DNA of 64,000 bases from Candidatus Latescibacterota bacterium. GTDB taxonomy: Bacteria > Latescibacterota > UBA2968 > UBA8231. Below are positions 34,961 to 64,000 of the stretch, in pieces (position 1 is the first letter of the stretch; every line of letters starts with the position of its first letter). The DNA lies in contig OZ241889.1 in assembly GCA_965203355.1 (NCBI GenBank), positions 2,432,001 through 2,496,000 of the forward strand. The letters are read 5' to 3'. Under the pieces are notes generated by a model, which saw only the letters and a list, made by a program, of their open reading frames with translations, was not told the origin of the DNA and ran no database searches. The position numbers and the translations under genes are program-made.

Positions 34961-36486
34961 TGGGTGTAGAAAGCGACGATGGCTTGGACGAGCGCGGGGA
35001 TGCTGCTCTCGCTGGGCTGCACGTGAACGGCAAACCCGAGTTGGCGCACGGCTTCAGCCGTGGTGGGGCCGATGCAGGCGATGTGGGTGCGGGCGAATAC
35101 GGCCTCGGCGCGTTCTGGCCCTAGTACCTGCTGAAAATTGTGGACGCTGGAAGGGCTGGCGAAGACGAGGAGGTCGAGTTTGTTCTCGGCTAGTGCGGCC
35201 GGGAGTTCGATTTGGTCTGGCAGGCGATTTACGTACGTCGTCAAATGGTGAACTTGGGCACCGCGTGCGGCGAGCGTGTCGGCGAGTTCAGTGCGGCCAA
35301 TGGAAGAAGCTGGCAAGAGGATCTCCTGGCCGGTCATCTCAAATGCAGCAAAGGTGCTGGCTAGCGAGGCCTGCGATTGGCGCGGGGGCACGAGGTCGGG
35401 GACTAAGCCGTGTTGGCGCAGCACGGAGGCCGTAGCTAAGCCGACGGCCGCTATGCGCGTATGGGCAAAGGCCCGGGCGTCGAGGCCGCGCTGATAGAGC
35501 CGGTCGCAGAAGAAGGCTACACTGTTGGGACTGGTGAAGACGACCCAAGCCGCGTTCCCAAGCCGGTCTTGGGCCGCATCCACAGCCGTCCAGTCGTCAG
35601 GTGGACCGATGTGCAGGAGAGGCAGCGTCGATACGGCGGCCCCTTCGGCTTCGAGGCGTTGCTGGAGGGAACCGGCCTGTTCGCGGCTCCGGGTGACGAG
35701 TAAGCGGCGACCAAAGAGCGGTTTGCTCTCAAACCAATTGAGCTCTTGGCGCAACGCGACGACTGGGCCGATTGCGATGAGGGCTGGCGAGCGGATTTGC
35801 TGGGCTGAGGCGCGGGCCGGCAGGTATTGAAGATCGGCGACGACCGTGCGCTGGTCGGGCCAAGTGCCCCATTCGATGGCTGCGGCCAGCGTCGAAGCCG
35901 GTCGGCCCCGAGCGACGAGATGCTGGCATATACGGGCGATCTGGCGGACGGCCATGAAGATGACAAGAGTGCCGTCAAAGGTCGCTAGCTGATCCCAGTT
36001 GATGGCCGCGTCGGGCTTGGCCGGATCCTCGTTGCCAGTGACCAGCAGGGCGGCCGAGGCCATGCCGCGATGGGTCAGGGGGATACCCGCGTAGGCCAAG
36101 ACGCCAGAGGCCGCAGAGACACCAGAGACGATTTCAAAGGGAATGCCAGCTTGGCGCAGGTGCAGGGCCTCTTCGCCGCCGCGGCCGAAGATGAAAGGGT
36201 CGCCGCCTTTGAGACGGACGACGACGCGACCTTGGCGCGCGCGATCGACGAGGAGCGCGTGGATCGCGTCTTGAGAGGGGTTTTTGCGGCCGCCGCGTTT
36301 GCCGACCGCGATTTGCTCGCATGTGTTGGGTACTAGGTCGAGCAAGCGGTTGTCGAGGAGGTCGTCGTACAGGACGACGTCGGCCTCGCGCAGATAGCGC
36401 AGGCCCTTGAGGGTCAGCAGGCCGGGGTCGCCGGGGCCCGCTCCGACGATGTACACCGTGCCCGGAGTGGCATATGCGGCGGACAT
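34957..36486 (-). CDS. cobA: Uroporphyrinogen-III C-methyltransferase / uroporphyrinogen-III synthase fusion (CobA-HemD)
   Basis: VYIVGAGPGDPGLLT, RLKGGDPFIFGRGGEEA, then HemD motifs LVTRSREQA, FTSPNSV, FASPSSV, IGPTTA; start coupled to the hemC stop (TAATG). Confidence 0.93.
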   Translation of the reverse strand: MSAAYATPGTVYIVGAGPGDPGLLTLKGLRYLREADVVLYDDLLDNRLLDLVPNTCEQIAVGKRGGRKNPSQDAIHALLVDRARQGRVVVRLKGGDPFIFGRGGEEALHLRQAGIPFEIVSGVSAASGVLAYAGIPLTHRGMASAALLVTGNEDPAKPDAAINWDQLATFDGTLVIFMAVRQIARICQHLVARGRPASTLAAAIEWGTWPDQRTVVADLQYLPARASAQQIRSPALIAIGPVVALRQELNWFESKPLFGRRLLVTRSREQAGSLQQRLEAEGAAVSTLPLLHIGPPDDWTAVDAAQDRLGNAAWVVFTSPNSVAFFCDRLYQRGLDARAFAHTRIAAVGLATASVLRQHGLVPDLVPPRQSQASLASTFAAFEMTGQEILLPASSIGRTELADTLAARGAQVHHLTTYVNRLPDQIELPAALAENKLDLLVFASPSSVHNFQQVLGPERAEAVFARTHIACIGPTTAEAVRQLGFAVHVQPSESSIPALVQAIVAFYTQ

Positions 36487-37394
36487 TAAGGCTCCAGCAA
36501 CAGGGCGTCGGCACCTTGGGCGCGCAGGGCATCGGCAAGGGTGTCGGCAAGAGCTGCGGTACAGGTGGGAGCGGCGCGCAGTTCGGCGCGCAGCAATTGA
36601 ATGCCTTCGGGATGGCCGACCAAGCCGTCGAGTGCTAGGAGGTCGCCCTCCATGCGGCCCCAAGTGCCAATGGGTGCGTGACACCCAGCGCGTAGAGCGT
36701 GTAGCAAATGGCGCTCGGCTTGCACTGCGACTAGGGTCCGGGGGTGGTTGAGGGCTGCGACGGCGGCCCGTGCGGGGTGGTCGCCGCGCATTTGCAGCCC
36801 TAAAGCACCTTGGCCGGGGGCGGGCAGAACCTGATCCAAGGGCAGATAGCAGCCGATGCGCTCCTGCCAGCCGAGGCGGTTGAGCCCGGCAACGGCCAAG
36901 ATGACGGCATCGCATTCGCCGCGCATGGCCTTGTTGATGCGGGTGTCTAGATTGCCGCGGATATCTAGGATGTTTAGGTCGGGCCGCAGCGCCTTGAGTT
37001 GGGCGCGACGGCGCAGGCTGCCCGTGCCCACTCGTGCGCCATCCGGCAAGTCGGCTAGTGAAGATATGCCGGGGCCGACGAGGGCATCGCGCACATCTTC
37101 GCGCTCGGGGATGGCGACCAAGGCGAGGTCTGAGTGCATCTGGGTTGGCAGGTCTTTCAGGCTGTGAACCGCTAGGTCAATATGCCCATCCAACAGGGCG
37201 CATTCGAGGGCTTTGGTAAAAACGCCCGGGTCCCCCCCCCAACTGCGTAGCGAACCTGTCGTCGCGTCGCCAGTGGTGCGGATGGGTGCGATCTCAAGGT
37301 CTAGCCCGCCGTGCCGTGCTAAGAGACGGTCGCGGACTTCGCGGGCTTGGACGCGGGCAAGTTGGCTACTGCGACTGCCGAGGACGAGTTTCAC
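36486..37394 (-). CDS. hemC: Hydroxymethylbilane synthase
   Basis: GSRSSQLA, AVHSLKDLPT, GTGSLRR, IRGNLDTR, PAPGQGALG, GCHAPIG; GTG start inferred. Confidence 0.96.
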   Translation of the reverse strand: MKLVLGSRSSQLARVQAREVRDRLLARHGGLDLEIAPIRTTGDATTGSLRSWGGDPGVFTKALECALLDGHIDLAVHSLKDLPTQMHSDLALVAIPEREDVRDALVGPGISSLADLPDGARVGTGSLRRRAQLKALRPDLNILDIRGNLDTRINKAMRGECDAVILAVAGLNRLGWQERIGCYLPLDQVLPAPGQGALGLQMRGDHPARAAVAALNHPRTLVAVQAERHLLHALRAGCHAPIGTWGRMEGDLLALDGLVGHPEGIQLLRAELRAAPTCTAALADTLADALRAQGADALLLEP

Positions 37395-37421
37395 GGGATG
37401 CGGCCATAGGGCATATATAGA

Positions 37422-37458
37422 GCAAGGGAAGATTCCCCCAGTGGAAATCTTCCCTTGC
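37422..37458 (-). terminator. Hairpin downstream of glnA
   Basis: Perfect 13-bp stem GCAAGGGAAGATT/AATCTTCCCTTGC about 30 nt after the glnA stop; no strong U-tract. Confidence 0.6.
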
Positions 37459-37487
37459 CCCAAGTACCATTTGTATTTTTGGTTTTT

Positions 37488-56238: not shown

Positions 56239-56847
56239 ATGACGATGACTCAGATTACCGCACAAAGCGTACGAATGCTCCGGGAGAAAACGGGCTTGGG
56301 CATGATGGATTGCAAGAAAGCCCTGCAAGAAACCGGCGGCGACAGCGAAAAGGCCATTGAGTACTTGCGCAAGCAGGGCCTGTCCGCGGTGGAGAAACGG
56401 GCCGGCCGCGACGCTAGCGAGGGCCTGATCCAAGCGTATATTCACCAAGGCAGCCGCCTCGGGGTGTTGTTAGAGGTCAACTGCGAAACCGACTTCGTCG
56501 CTCGCACCGACGACTTCCAGACCTTTGCCAAGGATGTGGCCATGCACATTGCCGCTTCCCAGCCCTTGGCGATCGATCGGGAGGGCATTGCTGCCGCCGC
56601 CGTGGAAAAGGAGCGGGCCATCTACCTCGAACAAGCCAAAAACGAGGGCAAGCCCGAGCATATTGCCGAAAAGATCGTCGAAGGCCGCCTGGAGAAGTTC
56701 TATCAGGAAAGTTGCCTGTTAGAACAGGTCTTCGTCAAAAATCCCGACCAGACTGTCGGCGAATTGGTCACCGAGCTAACCGCCCGAATCGGCGAGAAAG
56801 TTACCGTGCGCCGCTTTGAGCGGTTCGTCTTGGGAGAAGACGCCTGA
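56239..56847 (+). CDS. tsf: Elongation factor Ts (short ~200-aa form)
   Basis: LREKTGLGMMDCKKAL, EVNCETDFVA. Confidence 0.97.
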   Translation: MTMTQITAQSVRMLREKTGLGMMDCKKALQETGGDSEKAIEYLRKQGLSAVEKRAGRDASEGLIQAYIHQGSRLGVLLEVNCETDFVARTDDFQTFAKDVAMHIAASQPLAIDREGIAAAAVEKERAIYLEQAKNEGKPEHIAEKIVEGRLEKFYQESCLLEQVFVKNPDQTVGELVTELTARIGEKVTVRRFERFVLGEDA

Positions 56848-56865
56848 AAGCACATTGAGGCCGCC

Positions 56866-57426
56866 ATGTTGGAAGAGGTCCTTGAAACAGTAACAGAGGC
56901 GATGGATAAAGCCGTTGAGTCCCTGCGCCGCGACTTAGCCGCTATTCGCACGGGGCGGGCCTCGGTTGCCATGCTCGACAATGTGCGGGTGGATTACTAC
57001 GGCCAACAGACACCGCTCAATCAGGTGGCGACGATTAGCGTCCCTGAGCCGCGCTTGTTGGCGATCAAGCCCTGGGAGGCCACCTTGATTCCCGCGATTG
57101 AAAAGGCCATCCTCGCCGACAAGAGCTTGGGGCTCAACCCGGCCAACGACGGTGCCGTCATCCGATTGCCCATTCCCGAACTGACCGAGGAGCGGCGGGT
57201 AGAAATCACCAAAGTGGCCCGGCAGCGGGCCGAAGAAGGGCGAGTTGCCGTGCGCCATGCGCGGCGCGACGGGATCGACTTGCTCCAAGAGGGGCAAAAG
57301 GACGGAGACATCTCCGCAGACGAGTCGCGCAATGCACAGAAAAAAGTGCAGGAGTTGACCGCTGAATACGTAGCCTCCATTGACGAGATTAGCGAAAATA
57401 AGGAAAAGGAGATCATGGAGGTCTGA
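56866..57426 (+). CDS. frr: Ribosome recycling factor
   Basis: IRTGRAS, VDYYG, PELTEERR, KEKEIMEV. Confidence 0.97.
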   Translation: MLEEVLETVTEAMDKAVESLRRDLAAIRTGRASVAMLDNVRVDYYGQQTPLNQVATISVPEPRLLAIKPWEATLIPAIEKAILADKSLGLNPANDGAVIRLPIPELTEERRVEITKVARQRAEEGRVAVRHARRDGIDLLQEGQKDGDISADESRNAQKKVQELTAEYVASIDEISENKEKEIMEV

Positions 57427-57446
57427 GCGGCCCCTGCTCTCTGGTT

Positions 57447-58331
57447 ATGCCGAAGCATGGCCTCGTTTTGTCGTTCTACTACATTCTCTGGTCCATGCGC
57501 CCCCGGCAGTGGATCAAGAATGTCTTCGTCTTTCCCGCCCTCGTTTTTTCCGCCCATCTTTTTGAATTTTCCTATCTGGTCCGCAGCTTAGGAGCGGCCC
57601 TCTGCTTTGTCTTGCTGAGCGGCGGCGTCTATTTGTTCAACGACATCTTCGACCGCCAGTACGACCGCCTGCATCCCCAAAAGTGCCATCGGCCCATTGC
57701 CGCCGGCCACCTGTCGGTCGCGTTGGCTTGGGGGGCGGCTTTGATGGCGTTGGCCCTGGCGTTGGCTGGCGCGTTTTGGCTGCACCCTCATTTGGGGTGG
57801 GTGGCTGTGCTCTACGCGGCACTCAACGCGGCGTACTCGCTCCGACTCAAGCACGTAGTGTTGGTGGATGTGCTGATTGTGGCCGCGTGTTATCTGCTGC
57901 GTGCCGTCGGCGGTGGCCTCGTCATCGAGGTGTCCATTTCCACTTGGTTTATCGTCTGCATCTTTGCGCTGGTGCTCTTCGTGGCTGTGGTCAAGCGCCG
58001 CCAGGAAATCGTGCAACTGGCGGCGGCGGCGGCCGATCACCGCGCCATTCTCAAAGAATACAGTCTGCCTTTTCTCGATCAAACGATCGCCGTCCTCACG
58101 GCTATGACCGTGGTCTGCTACGCGCTGTACGCGATGGGGGTGGGTGGCGCAGGCGATGCGCGATTGCAGTGGACGATCCCTTTTGTGCTCTACGGCGTGT
58201 TGCGCTATCTCTATTTGGTATATCACCGGGGGCAGGGGGACGACCCGACAGCCGTTGTCTGGCGTGATCGGCCTTTGCAGGTCAATACCTTGCTCTGGCT
58301 GGCGGCTAGCCTATTCGGGCTGTATGTCTAA
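57447..58331 (+). CDS. UbiA prenyltransferase family (decaprenyl-phosphate phosphoribosyltransferase-like)
   Basis: MRPRQWIKN, YLFNDIFD..DRLHPQKCHRPIAAG, AYSLRLKH, KRRQE. Confidence 0.92.
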   Translation: MPKHGLVLSFYYILWSMRPRQWIKNVFVFPALVFSAHLFEFSYLVRSLGAALCFVLLSGGVYLFNDIFDRQYDRLHPQKCHRPIAAGHLSVALAWGAALMALALALAGAFWLHPHLGWVAVLYAALNAAYSLRLKHVVLVDVLIVAACYLLRAVGGGLVIEVSISTWFIVCIFALVLFVAVVKRRQEIVQLAAAAADHRAILKEYSLPFLDQTIAVLTAMTVVCYALYAMGVGGAGDARLQWTIPFVLYGVLRYLYLVYHRGQGDDPTAVVWRDRPLQVNTLLWLAASLFGLYV

Positions 58332-58629
58332 CCGAGGTAAAGGGGAAGCGAGCATGGCCGCGCATTTGATTAGGAACGGGCGACCGCTCGCATTGCGCTA
58401 ATTCGGTGTATCCCGCGCCGCTCTGCGCCGATAGCGGCCTAGACGGCTCCGGCTTGCGTCAAGCCGCTAACTCAAGCTCTGAATTGCTTTGTTGCGAAGA
58501 AAAGGTAAACAAACGTAGCTTTACTCCCGTTGAACGGATCGCCACGCTCGGCCTGAACCCCGGCGACCCAAGCCCGACCTCAACCGTACCGCGACAATTG
58601 GAGATTTCAAGACGTACCACGACCTACAT

Positions 58630-58658
58630 TTGACAAACTTCAGCTGATATTGTATAAT
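58630..58658 (+). promoter_or_regulatory. Consensus sigma70 promoter for the adhesin-like gene
   Basis: Exact TTGACA-17 nt-TATAAT. Confidence 0.8.
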
Positions 58659-58752
58659 TGTTAGGTTAGGTATGAAATTCACAGCGCACAGCGGCGCGTT
58701 TGAGTTATAGAACCCCGGCCGCTGGCGGCATTCTTAGTCGGATTAACAGGAC

Positions 58753-58923
58753 ATGGGCACAACGTCAATAGCACAAAGAACGCCATCGCCGGGAGCGGTG
58801 CTTGATGCAATGACGGTGCCTTGTTCTACGCTTGCGATAACGCCGAGTCCTAATCGTCATAAGTCGTTAAAAAAACAAATACTTACCCCCCCCCCCCCGA
58901 ATTTCTTGGGCATTAAGCCCTAG
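58753..58923 (+). CDS. Putative 56-aa leader peptide crossing a poly-C tract
   Basis: SD-like ACAGGA, ATG 58753, MGTTSIAQR...HKSLKKQILTPPPPNFLGIKP*; below the ORF-track size cut-off. Confidence 0.45.
   Translation: MGTTSIAQRTPSPGAVLDAMTVPCSTLAITPSPNRHKSLKKQILTPPPPNFLGIKP
58886..58898. repeat. C13 homopolymer (simple sequence repeat)
   Basis: 13 consecutive C; the longest homopolymer I noticed in the window. Confidence 0.9.
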
Positions 58924-59096
58924 CTTCACTCACCAACCTATTCGCCTCGCTCCCCTTCCTCTACGGAAGCGGGAAACGGCCTTACTCTGCCCGGCCGCGT
59001 CGGTAAGCTCCACCGACCACTGGCCACCGGCCACTGACCACCCATCCCCATCACAAACGAAACCCCTCCTCGATAGCCTCGCGGTTATCGGCCGGC

Positions 59097-59140
59097 GACG
59101 TCGTAGCCCGAGCTCTCGCCGCGCGGGATTCGTCTTTTTT
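59097..59140 (+). terminator. Possible intrinsic terminator/attenuator within the leader
   Basis: Imperfect GC-rich hairpin (GACG..CCCG / CGGG..CGTC) followed by T6. Confidence 0.4.
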
Positions 59141-59251
59141 AACGGTAGCAAAAACGCAAGAACACAACGGCTTAGTTCTACGGCCAAGTCCATTTTCTTC
59201 TATCCCTTTCCTTTCGCCCGTGGGCGATGCTTTCCTTCAGGAGGTTGAGTA

Positions 59252-62200
59252 ATGATACATGCGAAGTTGTCCGTGCCGCGCTTGGCTTTTGTGCCTTTTT
59301 TGCTGGCGGCCATTTTGGTGTTTGGCTGGGCCGGGGAGGCTGCGGCTCAGACCGAGAACATCGACATATCTGTTGATCGGCGTTCCGTCCGCGAGGATGG
59401 AGGGGCGCAAGATATTATGATAACAGCCGAATTACGCGACGCTGACGCGAAGGCAAAGGTCGATCTTTATCTTCCGCTGAGTCTCGTCGGTGTCACGTCC
59501 CGCTATCTCAACGATTTATTCACCATATCCTTTCCCTCTTTGGTGATTAAGAAGGGCGAGCGCAAGGCGACCGGGACGATCACCATAAACCCGACAAACA
59601 ATAATCGGATTGGAATTAACGCGGCCAACGCTTCGGCGGATGTTGATACTCTGACCATAACGGGTACGGTCGATACGGCTAAGGTTAAAATGCGGGTTAA
59701 TCTTCCTATCGTGATTGACGTGGGCGGTACCACTGGAACCATCTTCGAGAAAGGCAAAACCGCCGCGTCCTATACTGAGAAAGAGACTGGTGTTACGGGC
59801 GTCTTCTATATTGAGCTGATTGACGACGATGTGTTCGTCCCCAATATCGATCTCTCTGCTTCGCCGGCCAAACTCAGCAAGCAGGCGGATGCGACTCCGA
59901 TTGAAGTGACGGCGCTGTTGAAGGGCGGCTCGTTGGCGAGCCACGACCTTAAATCCCAATTGGTTGTTTCTTCTGGCAGTGACTTCTTGACGCGCGATGT
60001 GGATTACTCGCTGAGGGGTTTGGGTTCTCTGACCATTCCAAAGCGGAGGATCGACGCGACGACTACGTTCACCCTGGATCCGAATAATAAGGATGGCACG
60101 ATCGAGCTGAGATCCAGTCCCGATACGCTGAAGGTGGTTTTCAAGAAACGGGTGAACAGCGCGGGTAAGCAGGTTCGGTTCGACTTAAGGCATGAAGGGA
60201 CCTTAAATGGAGATAATTATGTGCATTCGACAAAAGACGATGTCAAGCTTAACGAATACATTAATAACACCAATGCTACCATCGGCATTGACTTCAACGG
60301 CGATGGGGATATTGGAACAGAGGCTAATACTATTGAGGGGACTAAGATATTTGGGAGAAAATTCGTCGCATGGGCGAATGAAGACTTTAGCACCTCCGAC
60401 AAAATCCCGGCGGGGACCGTCTTGGTAGAAGCAGACTTGGGGATCGACTTTTTCGAGGATGACGATTTGTTGGATACCTATGTGGTGCCCGCCGGAAAAG
60501 TGCTAACGGAAGCAAGTCACGCCTTACTTGATGTAGGGGCCAAGACTGTCACCGGCCATGACCCTGTTCTCAAACTCCGTATTGACTTTAACGGCGATGG
60601 GCAATTCACTGACAGTGCCTTCGCCGATGGGACAGTGATAAAGCATGTGGACTCTTTTGTCATTCCTGTTGTGGTCAATCCGGGCACCATCACGGTCGAG
60701 GACGTTGCAGTCGCGACGATCAAGAATTTTACGCTGAGTCCGAAGACGATCCGCGAGGCCGCCGGCGCGACCGACGTTACGATGACGGTTGAATTGGCGA
60801 AAGCCTTGACCGGCGCGAAGGCGGTGGACTTTCAGATTACGGCGGGTCAGGGGACGCGCGATGTGCATTACGAAGTCGAGGTGATTGAGGGGCTGACGAT
60901 CCCGGTCGGCGATACGAAAGGCACGGCGACGTTGCGCGTCACGCCGGTGGACAACAGCGGTGTGAATGATGCGCGGACGTTCACGGTAAAAGCGAAGGTC
61001 GGCGACGAAGAGGATCAGACGAAGGATCAGACGTTCACGATCACGGACGATGAGACGTTGAGCGATGACATCACGCTGTCGGTCAGCCCGAGCGAAATCA
61101 AAGAGGACGCCGGGGCGACGACGGTCACGGTGACCGGCACGTTAGATGGCAAAGTGCTCGACGCGGATGCGACGATGACGTTGGTCGTGGATGGTACGCC
61201 GGACAAGTCGGCGACGCGGGACGCGGATTATACGGCGGTGCTTAGCTCGCTGACGATTCCACGCGGCGAGATCACCGGCTCGACGACGATCACGGTCACG
61301 CCCGTCAACGACGGGAAAGACGACAACGACGAGACGATCACGATCAAGCAGTTGACGGACAATCTCAAGAACCAAGACGACGACAAGATCAAGGTCGGCA
61401 CCACGAAGATCACGCTGAAAGACGCGGCGAAGATGGATGATTCTTCGGATACGCCGGCGGACACGGGCCGACCGAGTTTCGGCACTGGTGCGTTAGCCTT
61501 TGAAGCGACGGTGGGGCAGGCGTTCAGCGAGGTGTTGCCCGCGGCGACGGGCGGCCAAGGAACGCTGCGGTACCGGGTCTCGTCGGACCTGCCGATAGGT
61601 CTGTCGTTTGACACGGCGACGCGGACGCTTTCGGGCACGCCGACGCTGGCGGGCATGTCCTCGGTTATCTATGTGGCACTCGATAGCGATGGCGACAGCG
61701 GCGCAAAGACCTTCACCATAACGGTCAGCGAGGCCCCGCCGGTGACCGTGGGCGTCGCCAGCGTAATGGCTTCGCAATCGGCCGTGCGCGAAAACGGCGA
61801 CACGGCGGAAATCCGAGTTACGGCGACTCTGTCGGAGGCGGCCCCGGCGCCCGAGACGGTCCGTTTCACGATTGTGCCGCCGGCCAGCGGCGCGATGGCC
61901 ACCCGCGACGTGGATTACACGGCGGCGTTGGTGGGGACGATCACCATTGCGGCCGGGGAAAAGGTCGGTTCGACGACGCTTTTCCTGTCGCCGATTGACA
62001 ATGCTTCGGCGGACGGTCATAAGCACTTGGGTGTTCGGGCGGTGTCTTCGGGCGGTTGGGGGCAGGTGGACTTGCGGATTTCCGACGACGAGACCGCCAG
62101 CACGTCTTTGGTGGTGTCGGTAATGCCGAGCGCGATCCCCGAGTCGGCGGAATTGACGGAAGTGATGGTCATGGCCGCGCTGGACGGCAAGCCGTTGGCC

Positions 62201-64000
62201 GAGGCCGCCACCGCCATCATCTCGATTGATGAGGTGGCTTCGAGTGCCACCCGCGACACGGACTACTCGGCCCTGTTCGATCCGACGATTACCATTGCCG
62301 CCGGTTCGATTATGGGTTCGACACGCCTGTTGATCGATCCAGTTGCGGACGGCATGGCCGAAGGCGACGAGACGGTTGTACTCAACGCGATGCTGCCGGG
62401 CTTGACGGCGGGTTCGGCGACACTGGTGCTGACGGAAGCGGCCGGCGGCATGATGGACGATAAGGAGATGATGATCCCCTTGTCTTTCGTCGAGGGCACT
62501 TCGATCGACGCACATGCCTATACGGCGGGCACGGCGATTACGCCGTTGGTCCTGCCGGTGGCGTTGGGCGGCGAAGGCACCATCACGTATAGCGTGTCAG
62601 GTTTGCCAGCCGGGCTGTCGTTTGACGCGGCGACCCGGACGATTTCCGGGACACCGGAAGCGGCTACCGATGGGGCCGTTGAAGTCACCTACACGGCGAT
62701 GGCTGGCGCCGAAAGCGTCTCGCTGACGTTCACGATTACCATCAACGCGATGCTGGACTTTGGCGACCTGAGCACGTTGTTCGGCGGCGGTGGCGGTGCT
62801 GGCAAAGCCAATCCAGCGGATTCGCACACCGACAACATGATTCAATTCACCATTAACGTGCCAGCAAACCTGACGCTGCCGGCGGTCTCCGGGGGCACCC
62901 CGCCGCTGACGTATAGCGTGTCGGGTCTGCCAGCGGGACTGTCATTTGACGCGGCCACCCGGACGATTTCGGGCACGCCGACGACGATGGGCGAGACGGT
63001 CGCGACCTACACGGTCATGGATGCCAGCGGCGCGAGTCAGTCGCTGCCGTTGAGCATGGCGGTGGTGGAGCCGCCGCTGTCGGTGCCGACAAACCTGGTC
63101 GCCGAAGACTACAAAGGTGCGGACGGCCAAGGCGACCAAGGCGGTTTCGTGATGCTGTCTTGGGAGTTGTCGGCCGATCATAAGTCGCTGGACGGCTATC
63201 GCATTTTCCGCGCGTTGCCGGTGCTGGAAAATGAGATGGTGCCGTGGGCGCGGGTGGATGCCGTGCCCGGGGTGGCGATGGGTCGCGCCATCGTGGCGAC
63301 GCTGGACAATGTCTCGACGCGCTGGGGCATTGCCGCCGAGCGCGGGGGTCGCACCACGCACGAGATGGCCAAAGCCGTGTTCGTCGAGGCGGGTGATTTG
63401 ACGCAGCCTTACGCGCAGATGGCGAAGACACTGCAAGCCAGCCGCGCCGCCGCGCAGGGCGGTGAGGGTCCGGTGCTGGCGTCGTTGCTGCCGGAAGCAT
63501 TGGCTTACGCTCGCGGCGTGGCGCCGAAGCTAAATGTCGTCAGTAGTGTGCTGAGTTCGTCGATTACTTGGACGGCCGAGGCTGTGCGGGCGACTGACGA
63601 CATCGCGCCGTTGGCTGTGTCGGCACTACAGGTGTTGGATGCGCCCGACGATCAAGGCGGTCGCATCGCGCTGACGTGGACGCTGTCGCCGTCGGATCAG
63701 GTGCTGCAAGGGGTTGTGGCTGGCGCGTTAGGCCCGGCACCGGTCGAGCCGATCGTCGGCGTACATGGCTACCGCATCTATCGCCGGGCGGTCGGGGAAG
63801 AAGCGTTTTCCGTGGTCGCCGAGGTGGCGTCCGGGGTCGCGTCCTTCGTCGATGAGACGGCGCAGCATGGCGTGCATTACACCTATCAGGTGCGGCCCTT
63901 TGATGGGGACAACGAGACCGGTTCGGTTGAGCATACCGCGCTGGCCGTGCGCAACCAGGTGACTGATAGTCAAGGGCAGGCTCTGTTGGGGTTGTTCGGC
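59252..64000 (+). CDS. Giant secreted adhesin-like protein with Calx-beta-like, He_PIG (putative Ig) and Fn3-like domains; 3' truncated
   Basis: SD AGGAGGT, signal peptide MIHAKLS...GEAAA|Q, frame open to the window end (1583 codons); repeated ATRDxDY...TI...DDE and YSVSGLPAGLSFDAATRTISGTP units; GYRIYRR / YTYQVRP. Confidence 0.93.
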   Translation, partial: MIHAKLSVPRLAFVPFLLAAILVFGWAGEAAAQTENIDISVDRRSVREDGGAQDIMITAELRDADAKAKVDLYLPLSLVGVTSRYLNDLFTISFPSLVIKKGERKATGTITINPTNNNRIGINAANASADVDTLTITGTVDTAKVKMRVNLPIVIDVGGTTGTIFEKGKTAASYTEKETGVTGVFYIELIDDDVFVPNIDLSASPAKLSKQADATPIEVTALLKGGSLASHDLKSQLVVSSGSDFLTRDVDYSLRGLGSLTIPKRRIDATTTFTLDPNNKDGTIELRSSPDTLKVVFKKRVNSAGKQVRFDLRHEGTLNGDNYVHSTKDDVKLNEYINNTNATIGIDFNGDGDIGTEANTIEGTKIFGRKFVAWANEDFSTSDKIPAGTVLVEADLGIDFFEDDDLLDTYVVPAGKVLTEASHALLDVGAKTVTGHDPVLKLRIDFNGDGQFTDSAFADGTVIKHVDSFVIPVVVNPGTITVEDVAVATIKNFTLSPKTIREAAGATDVTMTVELAKALTGAKAVDFQITAGQGTRDVHYEVEVIEGLTIPVGDTKGTATLRVTPVDNSGVNDARTFTVKAKVGDEEDQTKDQTFTITDDETLSDDITLSVSPSEIKEDAGATTVTVTGTLDGKVLDADATMTLVVDGTPDKSATRDADYTAVLSSLTIPRGEITGSTTITVTPVNDGKDDNDETITIKQLTDNLKNQDDDKIKVGTTKITLKDAAKMDDSSDTPADTGRPSFGTGALAFEATVGQAFSEVLPAATGGQGTLRYRVSSDLPIGLSFDTATRTLSGTPTLAGMSSVIYVALDSDGDSGAKTFTITVSEAPPVTVGVASVMASQSAVRENGDTAEIRVTATLSEAAPAPETVRFTIVPPASGAMATRDVDYTAALVGTITIAAGEKVGSTTLFLSPIDNASADGHKHLGVRAVSSGGWGQVDLRISDDETASTSLVVSVMPSAIPESAELTEVMVMAALDGKPLAEAATAIISIDEVASSATRDTDYSALFDPTITIAAGSIMGSTRLLIDPVADGMAEGDETVVLNAMLPGLTAGSATLVLTEAAGGMMDDKEMMIPLSFVEGTSIDAHAYTAGTAITPLVLPVALGGEGTITYSVSGLPAGLSFDAATRTISGTPEAATDGAVEVTYTAMAGAESVSLTFTITINAMLDFGDLSTLFGGGGGAGKANPADSHTDNMIQFTINVPANLTLPAVSGGTPPLTYSVSGLPAGLSFDAATRTISGTPTTMGETVATYTVMDASGASQSLPLSMAVVEPPLSVPTNLVAEDYKGADGQGDQGGFVMLSWELSADHKSLDGYRIFRALPVLENEMVPWARVDAVPGVAMGRAIVATLDNVSTRWGIAAERGGRTTHEMAKAVFVEAGDLTQPYAQMAKTLQASRAAAQGGEGPVLASLLPEALAYARGVAPKLNVVSSVLSSSITWTAEAVRATDDIAPLAVSALQVLDAPDDQGGRIALTWTLSPSDQVLQGVVAGALGPAPVEPIVGVHGYRIYRRAVGEEAFSVVAEVASGVASFVDETAQHGVHYTYQVRPFDGDNETGSVEHTALAVRNQVTDSQGQALLGLFG
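62585..62980 (+). repeat. Two near-identical ~70-bp He_PIG coding repeats
   Basis: ACGTATAGCGTGTC..GACGCGGC.ACCCGGACGATTTC.GG at ~62585 and ~62909; a more divergent copy lies at ~61570-61640. Confidence 0.8.

Follow-up and report, generated by a model that had tools for sequence, protein, structure and literature searches.

A 13-cytosine tract in the leader of a putative adhesin gene is probably a slippage-prone expression switch

The 64,000-nt stretch of DNA analyzed here (positions 2,432,001 to 2,496,000 of contig OZ241889.1; hereafter the window) carries an uninterrupted run of 13 cytosines (C13, 58886-58898) between a promoter and the start codon of a putative adhesin gene, and this run is probably a slippage-prone expression switch of the kind known from pathogens. 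The arrangement is compact, with the promoter, a short leader open reading frame (ORF), the tract, a C-rich stretch, a hairpin and the adhesin start all lying inside 620 nt on the + strand. That the tract serves the adhesin family as a contingency switch of some kind, acting either through the leader ORF or in an untranslated leader, we regard as moderately probable; that it does so specifically through the leader ORF is proposed tentatively, from the anatomy of the sequence.

The window has no second C13 run, and 100 dinucleotide-preserving shuffles produced none. Its length lies in the range at which an uninterrupted homopolymer becomes slippage-prone (about 8 bases or more), and it is linked to a surface-protein gene of a multigene family, as contingency loci are. 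The simplest objection is that the tract has no function, being a neutral or recent homopolymer or a length error of the assembly, with the frame pattern around it produced by chance. Homopolymer length is error-prone in long-read assemblies, and the open frame downstream of the tract is not significant against shuffled sequence, both of which favour this explanation. However, it has to contend with the absence of C13 from the shuffles, with a site in front of a surface-protein family, which is the classic location of a contingency locus, and with public sequencing runs. Eight runs of five studies, no RNA run being listed among them, contain the stretch or part of it, and four of them (X1, X2, X4 and X5) were compared, as contigs only. 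The one tract-crossing record listed, an independent contig of another run (X2 record 10, 106 nt, 58819-58924), repeats the tract and its flanks with 0 differences, hence with 13 cytosines, its 26 letters to the right of the tract being fewer than the 31 required. Additionally, X1 and X2 have loose ends at 58874, from which copies with a different flank before the tract are seen to enter the C run as well. We therefore consider a functionless tract improbable.

The only other homopolymer of at least nine bases in the window is a G9 run (37232-37240, minus strand) that lies in frame inside hemC (porphobilinogen deaminase; ORF 36486-37463) and is usable as an error control for tract counts. A search with the tract and the 11 bases that follow it (GAATTTCTTGG) returned three metagenome contigs in which a C run of at least nine precedes the same 11 bases (L001 12034-12053, L002 1180-1199 and L003 693-712); they have nothing else in common with the window and were set aside as chance matches, a verdict for which the expected number was only roughly estimated.

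The gene downstream of the tract (59252-64000) is represented by its 5' part, 1582 codons that run off the window, and encodes a giant secreted repeat protein, a putative adhesin, in which a signal peptide is combined with Ig-like domains of the He_PIG type (PF05345, 3 stretches, E 1.6e-29), its ATG being preceded at 6 nt by the Shine-Dalgarno sequence AGGAGGT (59239-59245). Comparison of its first 300 residues with 1.84 billion representatives of 50% identity clusters gave 397 relatives. Of the 150 that were listed, 25 or more representatives align from their first residue onward and have in common a signal peptide that hardly varies (MIHxK...GWAGEAxAQ), whereas the mature parts are different; M1 is also invariant in the family alignment A1. 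Since these representatives match from residue 1, ATG 59252 is the conserved family start, and the tract lies outside the coding region, 354 nt upstream, so that a change of frame cannot truncate the adhesin itself. In Neisseria pilC, in Campylobacter and in others, surface-protein genes carry homopolymer tracts within the 5' part of the coding sequence; the window shares with these a long G/C run associated with a surface protein and a proposed ON/OFF logic based on the reading frame, but its tract, placed upstream of a conserved start, allows no truncation of the adhesin.

The two closest relatives of the adhesin (53% and 49% identity) lie on one contig of 4,171,184 nt, which equals in length the contig of the window's S2 protein, and are very probably paralogs in the same chromosome as the window, and both begin with a different short N-terminus that has no poly-Pro; further family members are found on contigs of 4.5 and 5.5 Mb. 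The signal peptide (59252-59350), which agrees nearly letter for letter across the family (P0024-P0151), suggests either that these proteins have an export or sorting route of their own or that the 5' ends of their genes recombine often. In look-alike sequences of the public runs, an in-frame 6-nt insertion occurs at 59273, within the signal-peptide coding region (two contigs of X2 and one of X5). Besides, the unequal-length pairs P0064/P0187, P0184/P0188 and P0185/P0189, in one 90% family cluster and on contigs of 102,819, 33,205 and 17,601 nt, could be split genes or tandem copies.

Upstream of the tract, a sigma-70-type promoter (58630-58658; TTGACA, 17 nt, TATAAT) matches the consensus at 12 of 12 positions and is the sole 12/12 site within 57400-60000, the other promoter-like site in that interval being a 9/12 match on the minus strand. 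A second promoter near 59200 would have offered another origin for the adhesin transcript, and the interval 58900-59250 contains neither a sigma-70-like site of at least 8/12 nor a sigma-54-like site. Because the promoter at 58630-58658 is the only recognizable one, the leader is probably a single transcript, and the 590 nt before the adhesin gene are probably its 5' leader, with transcription predicted to start near 58665. The tract sits 228 nt downstream of the -10 hexamer. In Bordetella fim, the C-stretch sits in the promoter and alters transcription initiation; the two loci resemble each other in having a poly-C run upstream of an adhesin-type gene, whereas in the window the spacer (58636-58652) is a plain 17 nt with no homopolymer tract, and some 220 nt separate the putative transcription start from the run downstream of it.

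The leader ORF begins at ATG 58753, crosses the tract, where it encodes TPPPPN, and ends in the C13 allele at TAG 58921-58923, after 56 codons (58753-58923). With C14, translation would run into a frame that ends earlier still, at TAA 58914-58916. Only with C12 or C15 is a different frame entered (position mod 3 = 2; 58871-59248, 125 codons), one that is closed upstream by TAA 58868 and contains no stop, ATG, GTG or TTG from 58871 to 59245, to end at TGA 59246-59248, directly after AGGAGGT and 3 nt before ATG 59252. The original prediction had described this anatomy, from a perfect sigma70 promoter some 590 nt before the adhesin ATG to the leader ORF with its C13 and C14 stops (58868-58870 being given as the stop that closes the start-free frame and 59246-59248 as its end), and its coordinates agree with ours throughout. 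To this we add that the long frame is the same frame as that of the adhesin ORF.

From the tract onward, the leader is C-rich and G-poor (58886-59110; 44% C, 20% G), and a C-G skew as large in either direction is found in only 0.27% of the window's 225-nt windows. A C-rich, G-poor stretch has the appearance of a Rho-loading (rut) site, poly-C being Rho's preferred ligand, and 58886-59110 has what is expected of a Rho attenuator, namely about 80 nt or more of C-rich, G-poor, weakly structured and untranslated RNA. The same part of the leader holds a 14-nt unit with the consensus CCACCGACCACTGA, present in 2.4 tandem copies at 59010-59042. At its end stands a terminator-like hairpin (59109-59140; 10 pairs, one bulge, -10.4 kcal/mol) followed by UCUUUUUU, whose best-defined form occupies 59109-59132 with a core at 59114-59128; in a scan of 58660-59250, the nine lowest-energy candidates for a hairpin plus T-run downstream of the tract all fall within 59089-59135. 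This is the only region past the tract that yielded such candidates. The long frame crosses the hairpin, which is separated from the short stop by about 190 nt and from the adhesin ATG by about 110 nt.

These elements would fit together as follows. In the C13 and C14 alleles, ribosomes initiating at ATG 58753 would stop within about 25 nt past the tract, leaving uncovered about 190 nt of C-rich, G-poor RNA together with the hairpin and U-run at 59109-59140, and transcription would end before the adhesin start through Rho, the hairpin or both. In the C12 and C15 alleles, or where tRNA-Pro slips by +1 on the C run, ribosomes would continue to TGA 59246, shielding the Rho-loading stretch, melting the hairpin and arriving 3 nt from the adhesin ATG. 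We infer four steps in this scheme: transcription of the leader from the promoter, translation of the leader ORF, termination within the leader and change of tract length. Leader-peptide control of Rho-dependent termination is established in the E. coli tnaC-rut and the Salmonella mgtA and corA leaders, where a metabolite or ion is sensed through ribosome stalling and the position of the ribosome governs Rho loading. The window resembles these leaders in that its ORF adjoins a C-rich, Rho-loading-like site; it differs in that the proposed control depends on a mutable tract rather than on the sensing of a metabolite or ion.

Look-alike leaders are abundant in the public runs. Contigs matching a 1.4-kb stretch of the locus at 88% identity or more number 35, 232, 121 and 83 in the four runs and spread over all identity classes, from which it follows that many diverged copies exist, whether as paralogs, as strains or in other organisms. 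Depth along the leader, expressed as summed word depth of contigs and thus not as copy number, is highest or nearly so among the leader bins of X1 and X2 at 58723-58769, which spans the leader-ORF start together with the preceding 30 nt, and at 58864-58910, which holds the tract; in X2 the bin 58911-58957 lies above the tract bin. The promoter segment (58629-58675) stays at the level of the flank, and no adhesin bin exceeds 59381-59427, situated in the N-terminal coding part some 30 nt beyond the signal peptide, in any of the four runs. Coverage holes, which prove nothing, occur at 58629-58675 in X4 and, among the listed exact contigs of X1, at 58764-58901. Segments common to other copies alternate with segments at flank depth, which makes the leader look like a mosaic; the ORF start and the tract belong to its more widely shared segments, plainly in X1 and X2.

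A mosaic leader is also what would be expected if the leader ORF and the tract were a relic of a design in which start codon, poly-C and signal peptide were read as a single frame, later recombined in front of a gene with its own start and now of little or no regulatory consequence. In three of the four runs, contigs join 58914 to 59291, with the intervening sequence marked as not known, and if such a join were direct, the leader ORF would enter the hydrophobic core of the signal peptide in frame. However, diverged sequence may lie between the two joined parts, no fewer than 25 representatives of the family have their start at the position that corresponds to ATG 59252, and the short N-termini of the two closest paralogs are of another kind and lack poly-Pro. 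Nor does any long protein begin with the leader peptide, a negative of little force given that a 15-residue match falls below the reachable threshold. We judge a relic origin without regulation to be unlikely.

Several observations weigh against a switch that works through translation of the leader ORF. Its ATG is preceded by AGGA at a distance of only 1 nt, and no well-spaced Shine-Dalgarno motif is present; for comparison, a Shine-Dalgarno-like motif stands 4-9 nt upstream of 18 of the 56 ORF starts in the window, and 34 have none. The ORF was not called as a gene, its exact sequence is absent from the protein collection, exact look-ups of five small leader ORFs having found nothing, and its peptide is without a match among longer proteins, a comparison in which a 15-residue match cannot reach the threshold. 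In the ESM Atlas the best scores were 0.88 or less and serve as leads only. The product of the long frame, likewise, has no similar protein among proteins of 68-219 aa.

Constraint on the reading frames points in the same direction. Between the ATG and the tract, the frame is lost in some look-alike contigs: an A7 run inside the leader ORF (58870-58876, 9 nt before the tract) is shorter by one base (58869 omitted) in 2, 2, 2 and 1 contigs of X1, X2, X4 and X5, respectively. The other listed indels between the ATG and the tract, two distinct forms of net -6, retain the frame. No third-position bias is seen either among the nine listed substitutions in or just upstream of the leader ORF or among the 11 in the long frame, 8 of which change a residue and 0 of which create a stop. 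In addition, although the tract and the perfect promoter are unusual, the open frame is not: at least one of the three frames stays open to the end in 12.8% of 5000 dinucleotide shuffles of 58899-59251, a chance-level outcome that arises because the post-tract sequence is rich in C and has few stops. The region shows no enrichment of terminator-like sites (6 versus 3.2 ± 1.9 in shuffles), the hairpin is modest and loses one pair in the listed variant 59124 C>A, and the complete leader folds no better than its shuffles (z -0.93). As for the tract itself, none of the 12 indels listed out of 19 falls within it. In X4, the later leader bins exceed those of the ORF start and the tract, and in X5 the tract bin lies below the flank.

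The frame-switch interpretation that accompanied the original prediction thus stands in part: the anatomy suits attenuation through a leader ORF, but the open frame stays at chance level, the ribosome-binding site (RBS) is poor and protein matches are missing. It is on account of this poor RBS, the lack of any sign of translation or frame conservation, the chance-level frame and the absence of observed variation that we hold control through the leader ORF to be possible but tentative.

Much of the same evidence would be accommodated if the tract tuned expression in an untranslated leader without any leader peptide, via Rho loading, RNA processing or structure, and so behaved more as a volume knob. 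Neither translation nor coding constraint is apparent in the leader ORF, a long C-rich, G-poor stretch begins with the tract, and the tract segment is common to many look-alike leaders. Precedent exists in Haemophilus influenzae, where hmw1A is reported to be controlled, via RNA structure and processing, by repeats in its 5' UTR (untranslated region) (PMC12721329). There, and in hmw2A, the start codon of a large adhesin gene is separated from its promoter by a simple repeat that acts via the mRNA leader, as in the proposed arrangement; the difference is that the hmw repeats are 7-bp units reported to give graded control by repeat number, and they are not known to involve a leader ORF (PMC12721329, PMC8262952). 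An untranslated leader, however, leaves unaccounted for the sharing of the segment around the leader ATG, which equals that of the tract in two of the four runs, and the two multiple-of-three indels between the ATG and the tract. Moreover, one base more or less in 13 cytosines is a small change for an RNA effect that depends on length. This explanation appears to us somewhat doubtful.

For control through the leader ORF, the closest known counterpart is the pil1 pilus operon of Streptococcus gallolyticus, in which, as set out in a 2014 report (PMC3894217), a promoter is followed by a leader-peptide gene with GCAGA repeats, a stem-loop terminator and the pilus genes. In that account, a short peptide that stops 39 bp before the hairpin gives low expression, whereas out-of-frame changes in the repeat lengthen the peptide and the ribosomes prevent the hairpin from forming, giving high expression (PMC3894217). 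Both loci present the same order of promoter, repeat-bearing short leader ORF, stem-loop (a terminator in pil1, a candidate terminator in the window) and adhesin gene with its own RBS. In the window, the pil1-like lengthening past the hairpin is found in the C12/C15 frame and not in the C14 frame, at the chance rate of 12.8% given above.

The two leaders also differ in several respects. The pil1 repeat consists of 22 GCAGA copies and that of the window is a homopolymer; the pil1 leader ORF has a recognizable RBS and that of the window a poor one; the hairpin energies are -18.7 and -10.4 kcal/mol; and the distance from the short stop to the hairpin is 39 bp in pil1 versus about 190 nt in the window. 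The long C-rich, G-poor stretch before the window's hairpin suggests Rho, which is not known to be invoked for pil1. Unlike in pil1, only one of the two alternative frames of the window is long, and it ends beside the adhesin start. With pil1 in print, coupling termination to a mutable leader ORF is not a categorically new principle, and the novelty attached by the original prediction to a switch outside the regulated gene does not hold, pil1 working in this way (PMC3894217).

What would be new, if the proposal is true, is the homopolymer version, a possible role for Rho, a leader cassette shared across a family, and the lineage. In its most far-reaching form, which we think unlikely, the leader would be a family-wide cassette whose poly-C acts as DNA as a mutable frame counter and as RNA as the head of a Rho-loading stretch shielded only by the long frame, so that ribosome-dependent anti-termination would turn every giant adhesin gene on or off separately from the others; uncultured, Gemmatimonadota-like bacteria would thereby have their first described contingency-locus system. 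Pathogens furnish the textbook cases of phase variation, and no paper listed in our literature searches links it to sponge symbionts. Among the runs, "sponge metagenome" was the sole habitat label seen, in two runs with small shares (0.12-0.13), and no habitat is claimed. Were the tract a working switch, an uncultured bacterium would vary a giant surface-protein family stochastically, as pathogens do, and would do so in a less common way, with transcription termination tied to a leader ORF that can mutate, as known so far from one Gram-positive pilus operon. The compactness of the locus makes it a clean test bed.

Just before the promoter ends an upstream element of about 140 nt (58488-58628, + strand) that recurs in many look-alike contigs, sometimes inverted. 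Depth over 58535-58628 is raised relative to the flank at 58300-58440 in X2, X4 and X5, from about 8-fold (X5) to about 49-fold (X2). Loose ends listed at 58624 diverge from there onward (agreement 0.50-0.54), and a loose end at 58516 holds the reverse complement of 58608-58620, that is, an inverted copy beside another copy. The element has no second copy in the window, its fold is not special, and a 25-base piece of it gave 0 matches in viral contigs; it may act as an upstream regulatory element peculiar to this family, or may be a small repeat.

The leader, too, has no second copy inside the window, and no known RNA family reaches its gathering score anywhere in the window, the leader's own result being a sub-threshold minus-strand Zeta-pan match (20.6 bits versus a gathering score of 56.7). 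In searches for related loci, the adhesin N-terminus retrieved 0 relatives among genome contigs, a result of little weight since the patterns came from variable parts, and the family alignment A1 gave 0 matches both in 208 genomes of one phylum and in viral contigs. DNA queries with longer stretches against 208 + 86 genomes of two phyla returned only matches of 65-81%, in housekeeping genes, and an S2 search of genome contigs reached a top identity of 65% among the best 80 loci, none of them close in S9, S2, EF-Ts or RRF.

The genes upstream of the leader are rpsI, rpsB, tsf, frr and a UbiA-family prenyltransferase gene, its product being decaprenyl-phosphate phosphoribosyltransferase according to the source naming of its 90% cluster members, followed by a 920-nt gap and then the adhesin gene. 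The S2 protein falls in a 90% cluster with members named Gemmatimonadota bacterium by their source, the prenyltransferase cluster contains members named Gemmatimonadota and Latescibacterota, and the adjacency of rpsI and rpsB fits that part of the tree. Within this group, tsf is a short form of 202 aa and is directly followed by frr with no pyrH between them (56239-57426). The distance between the match starts of EF-Ts and RRF is 627 nt in the window versus about 1100-1900 nt in the 25 top-ranked of the best 80 S2 loci.

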